From assembly GCF_041886205.1 (NCBI RefSeq), contig NZ_CP169029.1: 64,000 bases of DNA; one strand, 5' to 3'. This document shows positions 16,417-56,459 of this stretch, one piece after another. Both the position numbers and the translations under genes were made by a program. How positions within the stretch are numbered: position 1 is the stretch's first letter; every line of letters begins with the position of its first letter. Below the pieces are notes generated by a model. It did not search any database. It was given only the letters and a program-made list of their open reading frames with translations, and was not told the origin of the DNA. The stretch comes from Escherichia coli (GTDB lineage Bacteria > Pseudomonadota > Gammaproteobacteria > Enterobacterales > Enterobacteriaceae).

Positions 16417-17655
16417 TCATATTGTTCCCCCCGGCATCGCATTCACCAGACCTGAAACCGCCTTCTGCGCTGCCTCTGCGCTTTGTGCACCGGGTACCAG
16501 AATCACCTTACGGCACTCCTCTTCACGTTTTTCGAAAATCTCATATCCCCGGGCGGCCTCTTCAAACGGCATATAGTGGGTAACAATTTCTTCTGGTTTC
16601 AGTAATCCTTTCTCAATTAACGGTAATAATTCTCCCAGCCATGCGTGAACGTGGGTCTGTCCCATTTTAAACGTCAACCCTTTATCAAAGGCGTCGCCAA
16701 ACAGGAAACCGTGAATAAATCCAGCGTAGACGCCCGGTACGCTAACAATGCCGCCACGCCTGACCGCCGCAATACACTGGCGCAACGCTTTACCGCTGCT
16801 GCCCTCCAGTTTCAGGTTAGTCAGCACCGTTTCCGTGGTGCTGCCTTTCGCTTCAAAACCGACGGCGTCTATTACTGCATCCACGCCCCGGTGACCTGCC
16901 GTTTGTTCAATAATTGACTGTGCCGGATCGCTATCTTCATCAAAATTAATCGGGATCGCGCCGTAGCGGTCAGCGGCGAAACGCAAGCGGTAGGGATGAT
17001 GATCAACAACAAAAATCTGTTCCGCACCGAGCAACCGTGCACAGGCGATTGTCAACAATCCCACTGGACCGGCACCATAGACTGCAACGCTTGAACCTTG
17101 TTGGATCTGCGCATTTTTTGCTGCCTGCCACGCCGTTGGCAAAATATCAGAAAGGAAAAGGGCTTTATCATCTGAAAGCAAAGGCGGTACTTTAAACGGC
17201 CCCACATTCCCTTTAGGGACGCGGACATATTCCGCCTGCCCGCCAGGAACGCCACCATACAGGTGACTATAACCAAACAATGCCGCGGGAGCTGGTATCT
17301 GTTTTTTATTGAGCGCAGCGCCTTTACCCGCATTGGTATTTTCGCAGGCGGCATATTGCTGCAATCGACAGAAAAAACAGTCGCCACAAGCAATGGCGAA
17401 CGGAATTACCACCCGGTCGCCTTTTTGCAAATTTTTTACGTCCTTTCCGGTTTCAACGACTTCCCCCATAAATTCATGACCAAAAATATCGCCATGTTTA
17501 ACCTGGGGTATTTTGCCTCGATAAAGGTGGAGGTCAGAGCCACAGATCGCCGTTGCCGTAATACGCAGAATTATATCATCTGCCTGTTCAATGCCCGGAT
17601 CGGGAACATTTTCTACCTGAACGTGATGTGGGCCGTGATAAGTCAATGCTTTCAT
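16417..17655 (-). CDS. ybdR: Zn-dependent alcohol dehydrogenase-like oxidoreductase YbdR
   Basis: 412-aa [23 protein letters not shown]... with MDR/GroES-like ADH signatures ([15 protein letters not shown]). Confidence 0.92.
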
Positions 17656-49184: not shown

Positions 49185-49223
49185 TGCTAACGTCAGATTG
49201 TTGACAAAGTGCGCGTCGTTCAT

Positions 49224-49324
49224 GCCGGATGCGGCGTGAACGCCTTATCAGGCCTACAAAAATCTTGTCAATTCAATATATTGCAGGATCACGTAGGCCT
49301 GATAAGCGTAGCGCATCAGGCAGT
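49224..49324. repeat. BIME: two REP elements in inverted orientation between fepA and entD
   Basis: GCCGGATGCGGCGTGAACGCCTTATCAGGCCTAC at 49224-49257 and GTAGGCCTGATAAGCGTAGCGCATCAGGCAG at 49294-49324. Confidence 0.85.
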
Positions 49325-49358: not shown

Positions 49359-49979
49359 ATGAAAACTACGCATACCACCCTCCCCTTTGCCGGAAATACG
49401 CTGCATTTTGTTGAGTTCGATCCGGCGAGTTTTTGTGAGCAGGATTTACTCTGGCTGCCACACTACGCGCAACTGCAACACGCTGGACGGAAGCGCAAAG
49501 CCGAACATTTAGCCGGACGAGTCGCCGCCGTTCATGCTTTACGAGAGTATGGTTTGAAAGGCACACCTGCAATTGGTCGTCATCGCCAGCCTGTCTGGCC
49601 TGCGGAGGTATACGGCAGTATTAGCCACTGCGGGGCTACGGCATTGGCCGTGGTATCCCGTCAACCGATTGGTATTGATATCGAAGAAATTTTTTCTGCG
49701 CAAACAGCGACCGAATTGACAGACAACATTATTACACCAGCAGAACACGAGCGACTCGCAGACTGCGGTTTAGCCTTTTCTCTGGCGCTGACACTGGCAT
49801 TTTCCGCCAAAGAGAGCGCATTTAAGGCAAGTGAGATCCAAACTGATGCAGGTTTTCTGGACTATCAGATAATTAGCTGGAATAAACAGCAGGTCATCAT
49901 TCATCGTGAGAATGAGATATTTGCTGTGCACTGGCAGATAAAAGAGAAAATAGTCATAACTCTGTGCCAACACGATTAA
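49359..49979 (+). CDS. entD: enterobactin synthase phosphopantetheinyl transferase EntD
   Basis: 206-aa ORF MKTTHTTLPFAGNTLHFVEFDPASF...; ATG confirmed at 49359. Confidence 0.92.
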   Translation: MKTTHTTLPFAGNTLHFVEFDPASFCEQDLLWLPHYAQLQHAGRKRKAEHLAGRVAAVHALREYGLKGTPAIGRHRQPVWPAEVYGSISHCGATALAVVSRQPIGIDIEEIFSAQTATELTDNIITPAEHERLADCGLAFSLALTLAFSAKESAFKASEIQTDAGFLDYQIISWNKQQVIIHRENEIFAVHWQIKEKIVITLCQHD

Positions 49980-49998
49980 TTGACCACATCTGGTACGA

Positions 49999-50089
49999 TT
50001 CGCCCGCAGCCATCACTGACCGCGGGCGAAAGTGTAAAGCAGGTGCCTTACCACCCTGACCTGACAACCGGATATGCGGGGATTACTCC
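49999..50089 (-). repeat. hok mRNA 3'-end segment, copy 1 (contains hairpin CGCCCGC-N14-GCGGGCG), cut off from hokE by IS186-A
   Basis: 91-bp block about 98% identical to 51849-51941; ends in the IS186 target duplication. Confidence 0.7.
50080..50089. repeat. 10-bp target-site duplication of IS186-A (GGATTACTCC; second copy 51429-51438)
   Basis: identical decamer directly abutting both IS186-A ends. Confidence 0.85.
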
Positions 50090-51428
50090 CATAAGCGCTA
50101 ACTTAAGGGTTGAACCATCTGAAGAATGCGACGCCTCGGTGCCTCGTTAAGACGATGCCTCGCGTTCTTCAATTGCGTTTTGTAGGCTGTCAGGGATACT
50201 GTCCCACGAATGGCCACCTGTAAGCTCCAGATGACCATTTTTGTTATTCTCCACAACGAGTTAGTTCTTCTTTTCGGATCCGGCACTTCTGGGGGGGAAA
50301 TCCAGCGATGGCTGGATTATGTCGTCAATTAAAAATGCGGCGAGTAGATTAGCAAATATCCACGCTTTCGCGAGTTCAGGTTCCTTTGCACGCAAAGCAT
50401 CCAGGTGCAGCAAACTTTTGAGCCGCTTAAAAGCCAGTTCAATTTGCCATCGCAGACGGTAACAATCAGCCACTTGCTCTGCTGAATATTCATCTTCCGG
50501 TAATGATGTTAGCAATAGCACATGGCCCGCTGCTTCCAGCGTTTCCGCCTGAACTACTCGTCCTTTTCGACGATTCTCGCTGAGCAGTCGGGTTTTACTG
50601 ATTAATGCTTTTTCGGGAGGAAGTGATACGGCAATGAGACGTGCCGGAAAGGGAGCTCCGGCTTTTTTATTACCTGAATTGCCTATCATTACAGTGGTTT
50701 CACCGTTCTTACCGCAATCCAGCCCGCGCAGAAAACCCATCATGTCAAAGCGCATTCCTTCTGCAGTTAACCAGCGCAATCCTCGCCAGTGAACCCGGAC
50801 GATATAATCAGCTTCTCCAAAAGCAAGTGAGCGGATACATTCGGGACGCGAACCGAATCCCCGGTCAGCAATGCGTATCTCGTCTGCCGTTTGCGCAAAT
50901 CGGTCCAGCCGTTCAGCGTCTCTGCTGTCGGTTAGCTCAAAATCAGTGAACTGACAGGTATGAGGATCATATCCCATATGTAGTCGCCATTCAGCGCTGC
51001 CGCCCCCGGGCGCACTGATTGCTGTTCCATCGACAAGACGCAATCTCTTTCCGCTTGTACAACCCGTAACTGCGGCGCGTACAGCAAGTGTTTGTGCGGC
51101 AAGTATGCCAAACCAGTCGGCGGCATTCCGCAGCCGCTTCAGGAGAGCCACGTCAGATAATGTTGCAACGTCATGGAGCTGAGCCCATGCAGTGACTTCA
51201 CGTAATGACATCCCCCCGGGGCCGTAAGCCAGCCCCAGACGTAGCAGAGTTGCAGCATCACGAATTTCGCGGCGGCGGGTTAGAGCCCCGGCATTACGTG
51301 CCGAAGTATCCAGTTCTTCGGGCTTACCAATATGGGCCAGAATTGCTGACCAGTTATCGTGAGAGTAATTCATCGGCACGTTAAATCATATCAGGCGTAA
51401 TACCACAACCCTTAAGTTAGCGCTTATG
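50090..51428 (-). mobile_element. IS186 (IS4 family) copy A
   Basis: 1339 bp; perfect 23-bp terminal inverted repeats CATAAGCGCTAACTTAAGGGTTG at 50090-50112 and 51406-51428; encodes InsL. Confidence 0.95.
50261..51373 (-). CDS. insL: IS186 transposase InsL
   Basis: 370-aa ORF MNYSHDNWSAILAHIGKPEELDTSARNAG... Confidence 0.95.
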   Translation of the reverse strand: MNYSHDNWSAILAHIGKPEELDTSARNAGALTRRREIRDAATLLRLGLAYGPGGMSLREVTAWAQLHDVATLSDVALLKRLRNAADWFGILAAQTLAVRAAVTGCTSGKRLRLVDGTAISAPGGGSAEWRLHMGYDPHTCQFTDFELTDSRDAERLDRFAQTADEIRIADRGFGSRPECIRSLAFGEADYIVRVHWRGLRWLTAEGMRFDMMGFLRGLDCGKNGETTVMIGNSGNKKAGAPFPARLIAVSLPPEKALISKTRLLSENRRKGRVVQAETLEAAGHVLLLTSLPEDEYSAEQVADCYRLRWQIELAFKRLKSLLHLDALRAKEPELAKAWIFANLLAAFLIDDIIQPSLDFPPRSAGSEKKN

Positions 51429-51449
51429 GGATTACTCCCCGCACAGCGG

Positions 51450-51602
51450 CTACTTCTTCGGTTCGTAAGCGAGAACAGCCTTAAACTCAATATTACGTTC
51501 CTTTACCGTAAACTCACACAACGAGTCTCCGACCAGAAGCGTAAATCCCAGCACCGTCAAACACAGCACTATGACTGCCACAAGGGCATATTTCGTCAGC
51601 AT
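51450..51602 (-). CDS. hokE: Hok-family type I toxin HokE (an in-frame upstream mok extension runs to 51701)
   Basis: 50-aa [53 protein letters not shown]; ATG at 51602. Confidence 0.9.
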
Positions 51603-51848
51603 GTTTATATTGCCTCCATGCGAAGAAGGGACTACCATCCGAGTTGTTGAGGTTCGGAGTGGCAGCCCCAGGATTGATAGAAATTTCTCCTGGGGCTTCA
51701 TCTTTCCAGACCTCAGAGTTAACCTGAAACCGGAAAGCTTCAGGCACCCGCCGTTATCTTACCCTTCCTTAGCAAAATAGCTGTTTATTTATACAGTGAG
51801 TCCTGTTTCGGACTTCTGTCAGCAAAACTCATCATTGCTCTTAAAACG

Positions 51849-51941
51849 AAATCGCCCGCAGCCATCACTGACCGCGGGCGAAAGTGTAAAGCAGGTGCCT
51901 TACCATCCTGACCTGACAACCGGATATGCGGGGATTGCTCC
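51849..51941 (-). repeat. hok mRNA 3'-end segment, copy 2, cut off from the second hok copy by IS186-B
   Basis: near-identical to 49999-50089 (2 SNPs). Confidence 0.7.
51932..51941. repeat. 10-bp target-site duplication of IS186-B (GGATTGCTCC; second copy 53281-53290)
   Basis: identical decamer abutting both ends of IS186-B; differs by one base from the IS186-A duplication. Confidence 0.85.
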
Positions 51942-53280
51942 CATAAGCGCTAACTTAAGGGTTGTGGTATTACGCCTGATATGATTTAACGTGCCGATGA
52001 ATTACTCTCACGATAACTGGTCAGCAATTCTGGCCCATATTGGTAAGCCCGAAGAACTGGATACTTCGGCACGTAATGCCGGGGCTCTAACCCGCCGCCG
52101 CGAAATTCGTGATGCTGCAACTCTGCTACGTCTGGGGCTGGCTTACGGCCCCGGGGGGATGTCATTACGTGAAGTCACTGCATGGGCTCAGCTCCATGAC
52201 GTTGCAACATTATCTGACGTGGCTCTCCTGAAGCGGCTGCGGAATGCCGCCGACTGGTTTGGCATACTTGCCGCACAAACACTTGCTGTACGCGCCGCAG
52301 TTACGGGTTGTACAAGCGGAAAGAGATTGCGTCTTGTCGATGGAACAGCAATCAGTGCGCCCGGGGGCGGCAGCGCTGAATGGCGACTACATATGGGATA
52401 TGATCCTCATACCTGTCAGTTCACTGATTTTGAGCTAACCGACAGCAGAGACGCTGAACGGCTGGACCGATTTGCGCAAACGGCAGACGAGATACGCATT
52501 GCTGACCGGGGATTCGGTTCGCGTCCCGAATGTATCCGCTCACTTGCTTTTGGAGAAGCTGATTATATCGTCCGGGTTCACTGGCGAGGATTGCGCTGGT
52601 TAACTGCAGAAGGAATGCGCTTTGACATGATGGGTTTTCTGCGCGGGCTGGATTGCGGTAAGAACGGTGAAACCACTGTAATGATAGGCAATTCAGGTAA
52701 TAAAAAAGCCGGAGCTCCCTTTCCGGCACGTCTCATTGCCGTATCACTTCCTCCCGAAAAAGCATTAATCAGTAAAACCCGACTGCTCAGCGAGAATCGT
52801 CGAAAAGGACGAGTAGTTCAGGCGGAAACGCTGGAAGCAGCGGGCCATGTGCTATTGCTAACATCATTACCGGAAGATGAATATTCAGCAGAGCAAGTGG
52901 CTGATTGTTACCGTCTGCGATGGCAAATTGAACTGGCTTTTAAGCGGCTCAAAAGTTTGCTGCACCTGGATGCTTTGCGTGCAAAGGAACCTGAACTCGC
53001 GAAAGCGTGGATATTTGCTAATCTACTCGCCGCATTTTTAATTGACGACATAATCCAGCCATCGCTGGATTTCCCCCCCAGAAGTGCCGGATCCGAAAAG
53101 AAGAACTAACTCGTTGTGGAGAATAACAAAAATGGTCATCTGGAGCTTACAGGTGGCCATTCGTGGGACAGTATCCCTGACAGCCTACAAAACGCAATTG
53201 AAGAACGCGAGGCATCGTCTTAACGAGGCACCGAGGCGTCGCATTCTTCAGATGGTTCAACCCTTAAGTTAGCGCTTATG
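51942..53280 (+). mobile_element. IS186 (IS4 family) copy B, inverted relative to copy A
   Basis: 1339 bp; same 23-bp terminal inverted repeats at 51942-51964 and 53258-53280; encoded protein identical to copy A. Confidence 0.95.
51997..53109 (+). CDS. insL: IS186 transposase InsL
   Basis: 370-aa ORF identical to the copy-A transposase. Confidence 0.95.
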   Translation: MNYSHDNWSAILAHIGKPEELDTSARNAGALTRRREIRDAATLLRLGLAYGPGGMSLREVTAWAQLHDVATLSDVALLKRLRNAADWFGILAAQTLAVRAAVTGCTSGKRLRLVDGTAISAPGGGSAEWRLHMGYDPHTCQFTDFELTDSRDAERLDRFAQTADEIRIADRGFGSRPECIRSLAFGEADYIVRVHWRGLRWLTAEGMRFDMMGFLRGLDCGKNGETTVMIGNSGNKKAGAPFPARLIAVSLPPEKALISKTRLLSENRRKGRVVQAETLEAAGHVLLLTSLPEDEYSAEQVADCYRLRWQIELAFKRLKSLLHLDALRAKEPELAKAWIFANLLAAFLIDDIIQPSLDFPPRSAGSEKKN

Positions 53281-53301
53281 GGATTGCTCCCCGCACAACG
53301 G

Positions 53302-53454
53302 CTACTTCTTCGGTTCGTAAGCGAGAACAGCCTTAAACTCAATATTACGTTCCTTCACCGTAAACTCACACAGCGAGTCGCCGACCAGAAGCGTAAATCC
53401 CAGCACCGTTAAACACAGTACTATGACTGCCGCAAGGGCATATTTCGTCAGCAT
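53302..53454 (-). CDS. second Hok-family toxin paralog (ORF intact; mok leader interrupted by IS150)
   Basis: 50-aa [53 protein letters not shown], one substitution versus HokE. Confidence 0.75.
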
Positions 53455-53551
53455 GTTTATATTGCCTCCATGCGAAGAAGGGACTACCATCCAAATTGTT
53501 CAGGTTTGGGTAGGTAGCCCTAGGGTGTACTGACCCCAAAAAGTTGGACAG

Positions 53552-54403
53552 TTAAACACGAGGCATATAGGTCTGATTCCGATATTCAATTGGAGTCAGA
53601 CCTTTTAATTTCAGGCTAATTCTTCTGCTGTTGTAGTATTCAATATATTCCGTAACAGCATCCTTCAGTTCGCTTATATTACTGAACTCATCAAGATAAA
53701 AACACTCCGACTTTAAGGTTCCAAAGAAACACTCCACCACAGCATTATCCAGACAATTGCCTTTTCTGGACATGCTTTGTTTAATACCATGTTCTTTAAG
53801 GATATTTTGATATCTTCTCATACGATACTGCCATCCCTGGTCAGAGTGCAGAACAGGATGCTCGTGAGGATTAAGCTTTTTGAATGCCTGATCGAGCATA
53901 TTCTCAACCATGTTCATCACTGGTCTTTCCGAAAGGCTGTAAGAAATAACTTCATTGTTGAAGAGATCTATTACTGGAGACAAATACAGCTTGCGCCCAT
54001 TGACTGCAAATTCAGTAACATCGGTAACCCACTTCTCGTTTGGCCGCGTAGCCTTGAAATCTCTTTGGAGAACATTGGGGGCGGTTTGCCCTACCTCTCT
54101 TCTGTAAGAGCGGTATCGCTTGACCTTAATCGCTGCCTTAAGTGAGAGGGTTCCCATCAGGCGCTGAACAGCTTTATGGTTAATCTGTTTCCCTTCTCGA
54201 TGAAGAGACAGCGTTACCCTACGGTATCCGTATCGGCCTCTATTCTCATGATAAATCTCACCAATACGCTTTTTAACGCCCGCATACTTGTCAGGCTTGC
54301 TGAGAGCCTTTAGATGGTAATAAAACGTACTGCGCGGTATCTCCGCAGCCCTGAGAAGCTCATCAAGAGGATAAAACTGCCTTAGCTCGTTGAGTACTTT
54401 CAC
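53552..54403 (-). CDS. insK: IS150 transposase OrfB (InsB; catalytic DDE domain)
   Basis: 283-aa [33 protein letters not shown]... Confidence 0.9.
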
Positions 54404-54921
54404 TTTTTCGTGGGATGAGCTAAGGCTTTCAGCTTTTTTAGATACACAAGCCGCGTTTCAAGAAATCGAACTTGCCTTTCAAGATCCTCAATGCGTCGGT
54501 CTTTTGACAGCTCCAATGCTGATGCCGCTTTTTCTGGATCAACTGATATTGCAATGTTTCTTTTGGTGCCAATCTTGAGCGCGCGTAAACCAGCTTCTCC
54601 GCGATCTTCATAAACCTTCAGCCACCTGGCTACAGAACCACTACCAGCAAGCATAAAGTGAGCAGCAGCCTGATTAAGGGACATGTGCTGCTCGATCACA
54701 GCTTTCACGACCTTAATACGCAACTCTGGATCAGCACTAACGCCTTTAGGTTTGGGAATTAAACCTTTTTCTCCATGTTTTTCATAGAGGGCAACCCATG
54801 TCCTGACCTGGGTTCGGGGGACACCAAAACGTGCCGAGATGATCCTGTAACCATCATCAGTTGTGAAGTAGTGATTCACGACTTCAAGGCGCTTTTCAAA
54901 AGGGTATTTTGGCTTTGACAT
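54400..54921 (-). CDS. insJ: IS150 OrfA (InsA; HTH DNA-binding)
   Basis: 173-aa ORF MSKPKYPFEKRLEVVNHYFTTDDGYRIISARF... Confidence 0.9.
   Translation of the reverse strand: MSKPKYPFEKRLEVVNHYFTTDDGYRIISARFGVPRTQVRTWVALYEKHGEKGLIPKPKGVSADPELRIKVVKAVIEQHMSLNQAAAHFMLAGSGSVARWLKVYEDRGEAGLRALKIGTKRNIAISVDPEKAASALELSKDRRIEDLERQVRFLETRLVYLKKLKALAHPTKK
54433..54439 (-). promoter_or_regulatory. programmed -1 ribosomal frameshift heptamer (A AAA AAG) joining IS150 orfA to orfB
   Basis: CTAAAAAAG near the end of orfA in the orfA/orfB overlap, as described for IS3-family elements. Confidence 0.6.
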
Positions 54922-55331
54922 ATTAGGGGCTATTCCATTTCATCGTCCAACAAAATGGGTGCAGTACAGGGTTGATAGAAATATCTCCTGGGGCTTCATC
55001 TTTCCAGACCTCAGAGTAAACCTGAAACCGGAAAGCTTCAGGCACCCGCCGTTATCTTACCCTTCCTCAACAAAATAGCTGTTTATTTATACAGTAAATC
55101 CTGTTTCGGACTTCTCACTCCTCATTTAATCAACTGAAGCTGAACCCGTTTTTTCTGCATGCCTCAATCGTCAAAATTCTTCGCCGCCAGCCAGCTAAGA
55201 CGCAACTGGTCACATTGCAAAAGTAGCCAAATTACTTCAGTCACCATCACCAAAAAAAAGAAACATTCCAGAACTTCCGCATCTCGCCCAGCCGCTCCCA
55301 CTTCTATACTGAATGGAAAACGCCAACATAA

Positions 55332-56459
<1,128 letters not shown>

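Follow-up and report, generated by a model that had tools for sequence, protein, structure and literature searches.

An IS150 insertion splits sokE in the second copy of a tandem hokE/sokE locus of Escherichia coli and leaves an intact, most likely untranslated hok reading frame

The hok/mok/sok (parB) system of plasmid R1 provides the paradigm against which we read the locus described here. The two share a Hok/Gef toxin, a full-length mRNA in which the 5′ and 3′ ends are predicted to pair by fold-back, and an antisense RNA, Sok, whose 5′ tail and terminator hairpin overlap the start of mok. Under this paradigm the mRNA is held inert by the fold-back element and becomes active when that element is lost. 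In R1, mok must be translated as far as the hok Shine-Dalgarno (SD) sequence; according to PMC9841398, mutations of the mok start, or stops placed upstream of the hok SD, abolish toxicity.

Insertion sequences are found in several chromosomal hok loci. In K-12, hokA, a different paralog situated between cspA and glyS, carries IS150 in the overlap of sok and mok, just 5′ of the conserved TTGAT Sok loop. The hok ORF is intact there, and mokA and sokA are pseudogenes in the MG1655 annotation. In K-12 hokE and hokC, IS186 elements (IS186B and IS186A respectively), identical in sequence to those described below, occupy a GGGG(N6)CCCC hairpin a few nucleotides past the hok stop codon, so that the fold-back element and terminator are removed. 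K-12 hokE is a single copy without IS150, and its mok frame is open and in-frame. The inactivation of chromosomal hok loci by insertion sequences is reportedly a classic observation, from Pedersen and Gerdes in 1999. In E. coli B strain REL606, hokE is likewise present in one copy with IS186 downstream, but here IS150 has been interrupted by IS1A and approximately 160 bp of the promoter/mok side have been deleted. Finally, PMC11551753 (Nucleic Acids Res 2024) reports sokE::IS150 from XL1-Blue and over 400 natural isolates, together with an IS150-disrupted sokA; in sokE::IS150 the element lies in the sokE/mokE overlap beside ybdK, and hokE is intact.

We analysed a stretch of 64,000 nucleotides of E. 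coli DNA (contig NZ_CP169029.1; hereafter the window). Its entD-ybdK region contains a tandem hokE/sokE type I toxin-antitoxin pair interrupted by three IS elements. Unlike parB, the locus is chromosomal and has been split into three pieces by the IS elements; it is not expected to mediate post-segregational killing. Deletion of all three elements in silico yielded a tandem hok-hok arrangement that matched the IS-free strain ET201 in a single piece of 1557 bp at 99.9% identity. Because this IS-free join matches a natural genome unbroken, the reconstructed anatomy is not a product of chance. IS-free tandem hokE-hokE loci made up about a quarter to 40% of evenly spaced results from the search with the IS-free join. 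The flanks of the two copies are 94-95% identical (51406-51672 against 53258-53524, and 51669-51817 against 54967-55115), in agreement with the proposed homology between the region upstream of the second hok (hok-2) and the intact region of copy 1. All coordinates of the original prediction were verified on the sequence.

These observations are best explained, with a high degree of confidence, by three independent IS insertions into a tandem hokE/sokE pair, by which copy 2, on the ybdK side, became a dismantled module with an intact but most likely untranslated hok ORF, in an old inherited or recurrent allele that has already been described. It is extremely improbable that a repeat-driven assembly artefact placed an inverted IS186 pair and IS150 around two hok copies. 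An artefact would fit the identity of the two IS186 copies, the presence of the full arrangement in only three of 5426 complete genomes, and the single hok and single IS186 of the closest relatives, whose flanks are 100% identical. However, the genomes that carry the architecture are three independent complete genomes, a natural genome is colinear with the IS-free join, and every IS is bounded by a perfect target duplication, those of the two IS186 copies being one base apart and each fitting its own hok copy.

In copy 1 the hok CDS (51450-51602, minus strand) encodes a 50-aa Val8 variant that scored 34.0 bits with the HOK_GEF model (cut-off 22). The mok-1 frame, starting with an ATG at 51699-51701 (minus strand), is open, in phase with hok and 83 aa long, and begins MKPQE, as does the frame from the ATG at 54997-54999 in copy 2. 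Here mok starts 33 codons upstream of hok, compared with 19 in R1, and is in phase with hok in this allele, compared with +1 in R1. The structured leader of the hok mRNA (51594-51749, minus strand) was detected on the hok strand by the Rfam 'sok' model RF01794 with 80.2 bits. An intact sok-1 (51646-51705, plus strand), homologous to the annotated sokE of K-12, is preceded by the promoter TTGCCT-17-TACCAT (51610-51638, plus strand). The fold-back element and terminator that belong to the 3′ end of copy 1 have been severed from it by IS186-A (50090-51428, minus strand), which comprises 1339 bp between 23-bp inverted repeats, with a transposase ORF at 50261-51379 and the 10-bp duplication GGATTACTCC.

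The second element, IS186-B (51942-53280, plus strand; 1339 bp), is the exact reverse complement of IS186-A and identical to K-12 IS186B, and is flanked by the perfect 10-bp duplication GGATTGCTCC (51932-51941 and 53281-53290). Relative to hok it is reversed compared with K-12, whereas IS186-A and copy 1 have the K-12 orientation. Both copies display the features of IS186 in the IS4 family, namely a length of about 1.34 kb, 23-bp inverted repeats, a DDE_Tnp_1 transposase (the Pfam model was matched on the IS186-B ORF) and a 10-bp duplication in GGGG(N6)CCCC. The possibility that the two copies belong to one duplicated 1852-bp unit was ruled out, as they are mutually inverted and have their own perfect duplications, which differ by one base.

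The IS186-B site is the GGGG(N6)CCCC hairpin immediately 3′ of the hok-2 stop codon, ahead of the fold-back element and terminator. The 3′ end of the hok-2 mRNA, displaced to 51852-51900 (minus strand), comprises the fold-back element AGGCACCU (51893-51900) and the terminator hairpin (51852-51881). In the reconstructed transcript the element pairs with the 5′ end at 55040-55047. For both copies, the predicted minimum-energy fold of the reconstructed 410-nt mRNA pairs nucleotides 1-8 with nucleotides 353-360, followed by the terminator, and the IS186 target hairpin falls after the stop codon and before the fold-back element. This pairing is a prediction for the reconstructed transcript only; in the actual DNA IS186-B separates the two parts. 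By entering the post-stop hairpin, IS186-B removed both the 3′ fold-back element, as had been claimed, and the terminator from hok-2.

On the other side of hok-2 lies IS150 (53526-54968, minus strand; 1443 bp), which has 11 mismatches to K-12 IS150. It is flanked by a 3-bp GGG target duplication (53523-53525 and 54969-54971), and its terminal inverted repeats are imperfect. The intact genes insJ (54400-54921, minus strand; 173 aa) and insK (53552-54403, minus strand; 283 aa) encode HTH and rve domains, with an A-AAA-AAG frameshift heptamer at 54433-54439, and lie upstream of hok-2 on the same strand. These properties are those of IS150 in the IS3 family: about 1.44 kb, repeats starting TGTACTG, orfA and orfB joined by a -1 frameshift at A-AAA-AAG, a DDE (rve) transposase and a 3-bp duplication. 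The insert separates hok-2 from its promoter side and mok start, as originally predicted.

IS150 cuts sok-2 after nucleotide 28 of 60, the K-12 sokE annotation mapping to 53498-53525 plus 54972-55003. The 5′ 28 nucleotides (53498-53525, plus strand) contain the recognition tail and the 5′ arm of the terminator hairpin. The 3′ 32 nucleotides (54972-55003, plus strand) contain the loop, the 3′ arm and the terminator U-tail, and are orphaned from the promoter. The surviving sok-2 promoter, TTGCCT-17-TACCAT (53462-53490, plus strand; position deduced from the 5′ end of K-12 sokE), overlaps the SD and start region of hok-2 and is now directed into IS150. Copy 2 therefore lacks an antisense Sok gene that overlaps the start of mok and has both a promoter and a terminator hairpin of its own, sok-1 being intact. 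Because the sok homolog is split by IS150, copy 2 is the disrupted member of the pair and not a functional locus. IS150 entered the Sok terminator hairpin directly 5′ of its TTGATAGAAAT loop, a point that is mok codon 11 on the opposite strand. A single event therefore detached hok from its promoter, leader and mok start and cut the antitoxin gene in two.

This insertion agrees with sokE::IS150 as presented in PMC11551753, except that IS150 here disrupts the second of two tandem copies, one whose mok allele contains a TGA codon. The suggested comparison with hokA/IS150 of K-12 held for the sok/mok spot and the intact hok ORF. It failed in other respects: the K-12 sokA element has the opposite orientation and no target duplication, and a 39-nt deletion on the hok side takes out the sok -10 region. 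REL606 hokE has the same hok-side IS150 junction as the window and the same Hok protein.

The 5′ leader of the hok-2 mRNA (54969-55047, minus strand) retains the 5′ end GGGUGCCU, the leader hairpin and the mok SD and ATG, and is still joined to the upstream promoter region and the ybdK intergenic DNA. By homology to R1-type leaders, the hok-2 promoter probably lies just upstream of 55047; no convincing -35/-10 pair for it was identified upstream of that position. RF01794 was matched on copy 2 in two parts around IS150. The promoter-side match (54892-55047) scored 63.7 bits, above the gathering score of 59 but with half of the alignment extending into IS150, and the hok-side match scored 23.7 bits.

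Rejoining 53525 to 54969 had been predicted to restore a mok start in frame with hok. The start (54997-54999, minus strand; MKPQE) and its phase are indeed correct, but the frame is closed by an in-frame TGA at 53500-53502 (minus strand). The rejoined mok-2 reads MKPQEIFLSTLGLPTQT and stops after 17 codons, 16 codons (48 nt) before the hok ATG. This join retains both copies of the target duplication, and hence one extra codon; the frame is in phase but closed with or without it. As the IS-free strains ET201 and C325 have the identical allele, the TGA lesion is independent of IS150, and decay of mok-2 after the insertion was ruled out as its origin. As it stands, the truncated mok′ ORF (54940-54999, minus strand) reads MKPQEIFLSTLYCTHFVGR; it is native to codon 10, continues into the left end of IS150 and ends after 19 codons, with its stop in the insJ frame and 18 nt short of the insJ ATG. 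Leader translation reaching the hok SD and start is thus absent from copy 2 both before and after excision of IS150 in silico.

The position of mok′ raises the question of whether the insertion benefits IS150, with a constitutive hok-2 promoter and mok′ boosting transposase synthesis, and copy-1 Sok pairing with the mok′ leader to provide antisense control. We consider this very unlikely. The mok′ stop precedes the insJ ATG by 18 nt in a shared frame, IS150 has this orientation in all 521 genomes with the junction, as their colinear matches show, and the leaders of the two copies are approximately 95% identical, but the argument is purely positional. The element in K-12 sokA is the opposite way round, so this orientation does not hold generally. 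A trans-acting Sok is lacking where there is only one hok copy, and in REL606 the promoter side is altogether gone.

The dismantled module nevertheless retains a complete toxin gene, in keeping with the prediction that the reading frame survives. The hok-2 CDS (53302-53454, minus strand) consists of 50 codons and a stop; its product has the same sequence as K-12 HokE and scored 32.1 bits with Pfam HOK_GEF (PF01848; cut-off 22). [quoted passage not shown] The Tyr46 codon of hok-2 is TAC (53317-53319) in a UACG context. MG1655 HokE, the identical peptide, has served as a previously characterised toxic control in an overexpression assay (bioRxiv 10.1101/2025.08.07.668861). The Hok ORF was intact in 18 of 18 loci inspected, a small sample of a short ORF; such conservation would be unexpected for a long-dead gene.

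As it stands, hok-2 has no dedicated promoter and no flow of ribosomes from upstream to open its start region. We infer from these two properties that under the R1 paradigm it is most likely untranslated; silence of hok-2 is plausible, since normal Hok synthesis should be prevented. The original prediction had invoked a dependence of hok translation on both mok and 3′ processing. The requirement for mok is supported in R1 by PMC9841398; loss of the fold-back element, by contrast, is not in itself silencing. In the predicted local fold of the orphan hok-2 fragment (z = -1.7) the SD lies in the loop of a small hairpin and is not clearly sequestered.

Outward transcription from the flanking elements had been named as a possible driver of hok-2. 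IS186 was ruled out on geometry: IS186-B is situated 3′ of hok-2, has its transposase encoded on the other strand, and could therefore yield only antisense RNA. The elements in a position to drive hok-2 are confined to IS150 itself and, by way of read-through across IS150, the hok-2 promoter. A consensus scan of the minus strand near the IS150/hok-2 junction found no promoter-like site, and overall counts were below shuffle expectation. The hybrid TTGGGG-17-TACCTA, considered as an outward IS150 promoter, was poor by eye and was dropped as evidence.

Read-through from the hok-2 or IS150 promoters, or both, might nevertheless yield low levels of Hok, sok-2 and the fold-back element being lost and copy-1 Sok in trans the only restraint; we regard this as unlikely. 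The hok-2 promoter, insJ/insK and hok-2 lie in series on the minus strand, no terminator-like site was found on that strand from insK to hok-2, and transcripts could carry the hok ORF and its SD. However, 98 nt separate the insK stop (53552) from the hok ATG downstream of it, and a TGA closes the mok frame, so no ribosomes would arrive from upstream; in R1 such a loss abolishes Hok synthesis. There is also the lack of a promoter-like site directed out of IS150 towards hok-2, and the surviving sok-2 promoter is predicted to give RNA antisense to a read-through transcript, in the form of a Sok′-IS150 chimera of roughly 110 nt on the plus strand (53498 to about 53610). A microarray study placed hokE among the genes with high expression in REL606 compared with MG1655 (PMC3446290). 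This strain shares the hok-side IS150 junction, and the result would favour read-through, but the array was possibly not strand-specific, and REL606 has IS1A inside IS150 and its promoter side deleted. Replacement of sokE::IS150 by sokE+ alters the RecA-dependence of viability in engineered K-12 strains (PMC11551753); the same study obtained a revertant by precise excision of IS150. On this account sokE::IS150 is not phenotypically neutral in every background, and the difference in phenotype, like the retention of the Hok ORF in every allele seen, is in line with some Hok synthesis.

The hok-IS150-mok′ junction was found in 521 of 5426 complete E. coli genomes (approximately 10%). It is at the identical site in QA-1986 83 and VE-T9, and in REL606 its hok side only is present. 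QA-1986 83 and ES7 are examples of strains with the arrangement of the window, and VE-T9 of the single-copy type. The insertion is an old allele, inherited and/or recurrent. The IS150-split sokE allele is real, ordinary and already published as sokE::IS150; we equate the two sites from the wording of PMC11551753 and from our own junction search.

In sokA, sokC and sokE alike, IS150 occupies a homologous position within the Sok hairpin. In sokE it is found there in the window and in the 521 genomes, and in K-12 sokA at the same spot in the opposite orientation. For sokC, the reported coordinate of new IS150 insertions in three evolved E. coli B lines is the homologous spot, and the same hairpin motif is present in sokB. 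The target resembles the inner IS150 inverted repeats (CCCCA..GTTG) by eye, a likeness that we did not use as evidence.

We tentatively raise the possibility, with less than even confidence, that IS150 lands in a sequence- or structure-specific manner at the end of the Sok terminator hairpin that carries the loop (sense GGG|TTGATAGAAAT), a site shared by paralogous hok/sok loci. If so, hok/sok loci would be knocked out by targeted transposition and not by selection alone, and in the orientation seen in the window the hok promoter and the mok′ mini-ORF would feed the IS150 transposase. Target specificity would also explain the recurring hok/sok IS150 'targets of selection' in evolution experiments. 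The value of the present findings lies mainly in annotation. The second 'hokE' called by pipelines in such genomes is an intact toxin ORF in a dismantled module whose promoter, mok start, sok and fold-back element/terminator are detached, and it represents a further case of the long-known inactivation of chromosomal hok loci by IS150 and IS186.

Between entD and ybdK the window carries two tandem hokE/sokE toxin-antitoxin loci, copy 1 and copy 2, in the order IS186-A, hok copy 1, IS186-B, hok copy 2, IS150, the truncated mok leader ORF (mok′) with the leader of copy 2, and ybdK (55341). IS186-A occupies 50090-51428, with its transposase on the minus strand, and IS186-B occupies 51942-53280, with its transposase on the plus strand. 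In copy 1 the hok CDS lies at 51450-51602, the mok ATG at 51699-51701 and the antitoxin RNA gene sok at 51646-51705. Tyr46 is encoded by UAC in both hok copies, in the context GCUUACGAACC (53317-53319 and 51465-51467, minus strand); A-to-I recoding of codon 46 to Cys in hokE mRNA is described in a 2026 preprint (10.1101/2025.08.07.668861). The nearby fepA-entD intergenic region (49194-49300) contains a match to Rfam ES036 (CssrF) at 49259-49300 on the plus strand (39.8 bits, gathering score 37.6), and a sub-threshold naRNA4/REP-like match at 49213-49254 on the minus strand.

The original prediction that IS150 splits copy 2 and leaves its toxin ORF intact was borne out, and its coordinates were accurate. 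The hok ORF of copy 2 (hok-2; 53302-53454, minus strand) encodes 50 amino acids, scores above threshold for Pfam HOK_GEF and is identical to K-12 HokE. IS150 lies at 53526-54968 (1443 bp, ends TGTACTGACCCC.../...GGGTGCAGTACA) between the two copies of a 3-bp target duplication (GGG, 53523-53525 and 54969-54971), and differs from K-12 IS150 at 11 of 1443 positions. Both of its minus-strand genes, insJ (173 aa) and insK (283 aa), are intact; HTH and rve domains are present, as is the A-AAA-AAG frameshift heptamer at 54433-54439. The sequences flanking IS150 are 94-95% identical to uninterrupted copy 1, and the mok-like ATG proposed to the right of the element is present at 54997-54999, where it opens the same MKPQE sequence as in copy 1.

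On the hok strand, IS150 breaks mok in codon 11. The resulting mok′ ORF, MKPQEIFLSTLYCTHFVGR*, has 19 codons (54940-54999), and its stop lies 18 nt upstream of the insJ ATG, on the same strand and in frame; with this geometry (54919-54999), transcription from the hok-2 promoter and the accompanying translation would run directly into the transposase gene. IS150 also cuts sok, on the opposite strand, a point that the original prediction had missed. The 60-nt K-12 sokE annotation maps onto 53498-53525 plus 54972-55003. The hok side retains the sok-2 promoter (TTGCCT-17-TACCAT, 53462-53490) and, of the RNA itself, the 5′ tail with the first (5′) arm of the terminator hairpin; the rest of the hairpin (loop and 3′ arm) and the U-tail are displaced by 1.4 kb. 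Rfam leader model RF01794 matches copy 1 with 80.2 bits, and on copy 2 the match is split over IS150 into 63.7 and 23.7 bits.

Rejoining the IS150 flanks had been expected to restore a mok start in frame with hok. The rejoined start is indeed in phase, but the frame is not open: a TGA at 53500-53502 closes it after 17 codons. Since the IS-free genomes ET201 and C325 carry the same TGA-closed allele, the stop was not caused by the IS150 insertion. The spacing between the mok and hok ATGs was compared at 18 loci in 11 sequences, comprising 10 genomes and the IS-free reconstruction of the window (window 51603-51701 and 53455-53525 plus 54972-54999; comparison loci L003, L005-L007 and L013-L018). 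The hokE-family mok ORF proved polymorphic among IS-free alleles. A spacing of 100 nt places mok at +1 relative to hok and gives a 62-aa Mok overlapping hok, like those of plasmid R1 and K-12 mokB; at 99 nt the two are in phase and mok is either open (83 aa) or TGA-closed; at 98 nt mok is shifted (mod 3 = 2) and forms a 22-aa ORF. The 50-aa Hok ORF was intact at all 18 loci. Section 18 of one source on R1 reports that toxicity is abolished by mok stops ahead of the hok SD (PMC9841398); by that paradigm, translation of copy 2 was already crippled before, or regardless of, the arrival of IS150.

The hok–IS150–mok′ junction is colinear in 521 of 5426 complete E. coli genomes, and the IS150 site is identical in QA-1986 83 and VE-T9. 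Pedersen & Gerdes reportedly found in 1999 that K-12 hokA, hokC and hokE are inactivated by IS150 or IS186 near, not in, the toxin gene. In E. coli B REL606 (L008 13543-15696) the hok-side IS150 junction is the same as in the window, but IS150 is interrupted by IS1A, and on the other side a deletion of about 160 bp has removed the hok promoter together with the leader and the mok start. The allele has been named sokE::IS150, and is known from XL1-Blue, more than 400 natural isolates and some Shigella flexneri (PMC11551753). The IS150-split hokE allele is already described and widespread.

IS186-A is the exact reverse complement of IS186-B, and both are identical to K-12 IS186B. The two are flanked by different perfect 10-bp duplications (GGATTACTCC at IS186-A, GGATTGCTCC at IS186-B), each inside a GGGG(N6)CCCC hairpin immediately after the hok stop, and they are therefore separate insertions into homologous sites of two diverged tandem repeats. 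In silico removal of both IS186 copies and IS150, keeping one copy of each duplication, left 1557 bp that matched E. coli ET201 as a single piece at 99.9% identity (window 49700-55400 against L005). In ET201, then, the empty site of each of the three insertions exists naturally. Tandem hokE-hokE loci free of IS elements are common in E. coli, accounting for about a quarter to 40% of evenly spaced hits (about 11-16 of 40), and hokE is single in other genomes; hok genes in tandem 'islets' have also been described (bioRxiv 10.1101/2025.08.07.668861). The full three-IS arrangement is rare (3 of 5426 complete genomes, 98.5% identity) and is a variation on a known theme. The closest relatives (among them VE-T9 and LHM10-1), whose flanks are 100% identical across 22 kb, carry only one copy each of hok and IS186. 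In VE-T9, the one relative examined for this feature, the repeats on the two sides of IS186 differ: the left one, GGATTACTCC, and the right one, GGATTGCTCC (L002 2081-2090 and 3430-3439), correspond to those bordering the IS186-A site on its left and the IS186-B site on its right (window 50075-50089, 51429-51443, 51927-51941 and 53281-53295). These repeats indicate that copy 1 was lost there through IS186-mediated adjacent deletion or IS186-IS186 recombination.

In minimum-energy folds of reconstructed 410-nt transcripts of both copies, nucleotides 1-8 (GGGUGCCU) pair with nucleotides 353-360 (AGGCACCU), followed by the terminator hairpin, a predicted structure that follows the classical hok fold-back plan. 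The hairpin targeted by IS186 falls after the hok stop codon and before the fold-back element. As proposed, IS186-B severs hok-2 from its 3′ element: the copy-2 fold-back element and terminator are at 51852-51900, beyond IS186-B. Losing the fold-back element does not by itself qualify as a silencing lesion, because in the R1 hok/mok/sok paradigm this element keeps the mRNA inert.

Copy 2 of hok lacks a promoter of its own within 1.5 kb, an upstream ORF to deliver ribosomes, a cognate antitoxin gene and its native 3′ end, and we infer that it is not translated. Outward transcription from either element had been offered as a possible driver. From IS186-B, downstream of hok-2 and on the opposite strand, only antisense RNA could arise, so that this half of the proposal fails on geometry. 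A promoter scan found no outward promoter-like site from IS150 towards hok-2. Read-through from the hok-2 promoter or the IS150 transposase promoter, both aimed at hok-2, is the only sense route. The surviving sok-2 promoter points into IS150 (53462-53610, plus strand), and its predicted product begins with 28 nt of sok and continues as IS150 antisense sequence. At 53569-53603 there is a strong hairpin of 15 bp with a U-run (fold of 53498-53625, z = -3.9). This hairpin could terminate a Sok′-IS150 chimeric RNA of about 110 nt, which would be antisense to the insK 3′ end and complementary to any read-through transcript. The evidence against complete silence of hok-2 comes from the literature and not from the window sequence: hokE is among the genes highly expressed in REL606 relative to MG1655 (PMC3446290), and in engineered K-12 strains a RecA-dependence phenotype is suppressed once sokE+ takes the place of sokE::IS150 (PMC11551753). 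The original interpretation was largely right but incomplete, in that sok is cut too, the mok stop pre-existed and IS186 is no driver of hok-2.

Two other sok genes have IS150 at or near the homologous position. In sok sense, the sokE site in the window reads ...CCCTA[GGG]TTGATAGAAAT (53523-53525 / 54969-54975). New IS150 insertions in hokC/nhaA at 16,972 were reported in three evolved E. coli B lines (PMC5419217, Table 3), and on REL606 this coordinate falls in sokC at ...CCTCG[GGT]TGATAGTAAA (L009 451-509). K-12 sokA is likewise disrupted by IS150 (PMC11551753); judged from the IS-free hokA allele of HH97, the junction is ...GGGGCCTC|ACT TTGATTTATAG (L004 1634-3076; L019 384-425). In the suggested comparison with K-12 hokA, the position of IS150 is homologous; the K-12 element is reversed in orientation, has no duplication and is accompanied by a hok-side deletion of 39 nt. 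The same loop motif occurs in sokB, and hokB/sokB is cited among the loci hit repeatedly in the Lenski experiment (bioRxiv 10.1101/027086). The Sok terminator hairpin has a conserved TTGAT(A/T) loop, and in sokE, sokA and sokC IS150 lies directly 5′ of it. Insertion within about one nucleotide of the homologous position in three paralogs argues for target preference besides any selection, and suggests that the Sok hairpin loop is a target hot spot for IS150.
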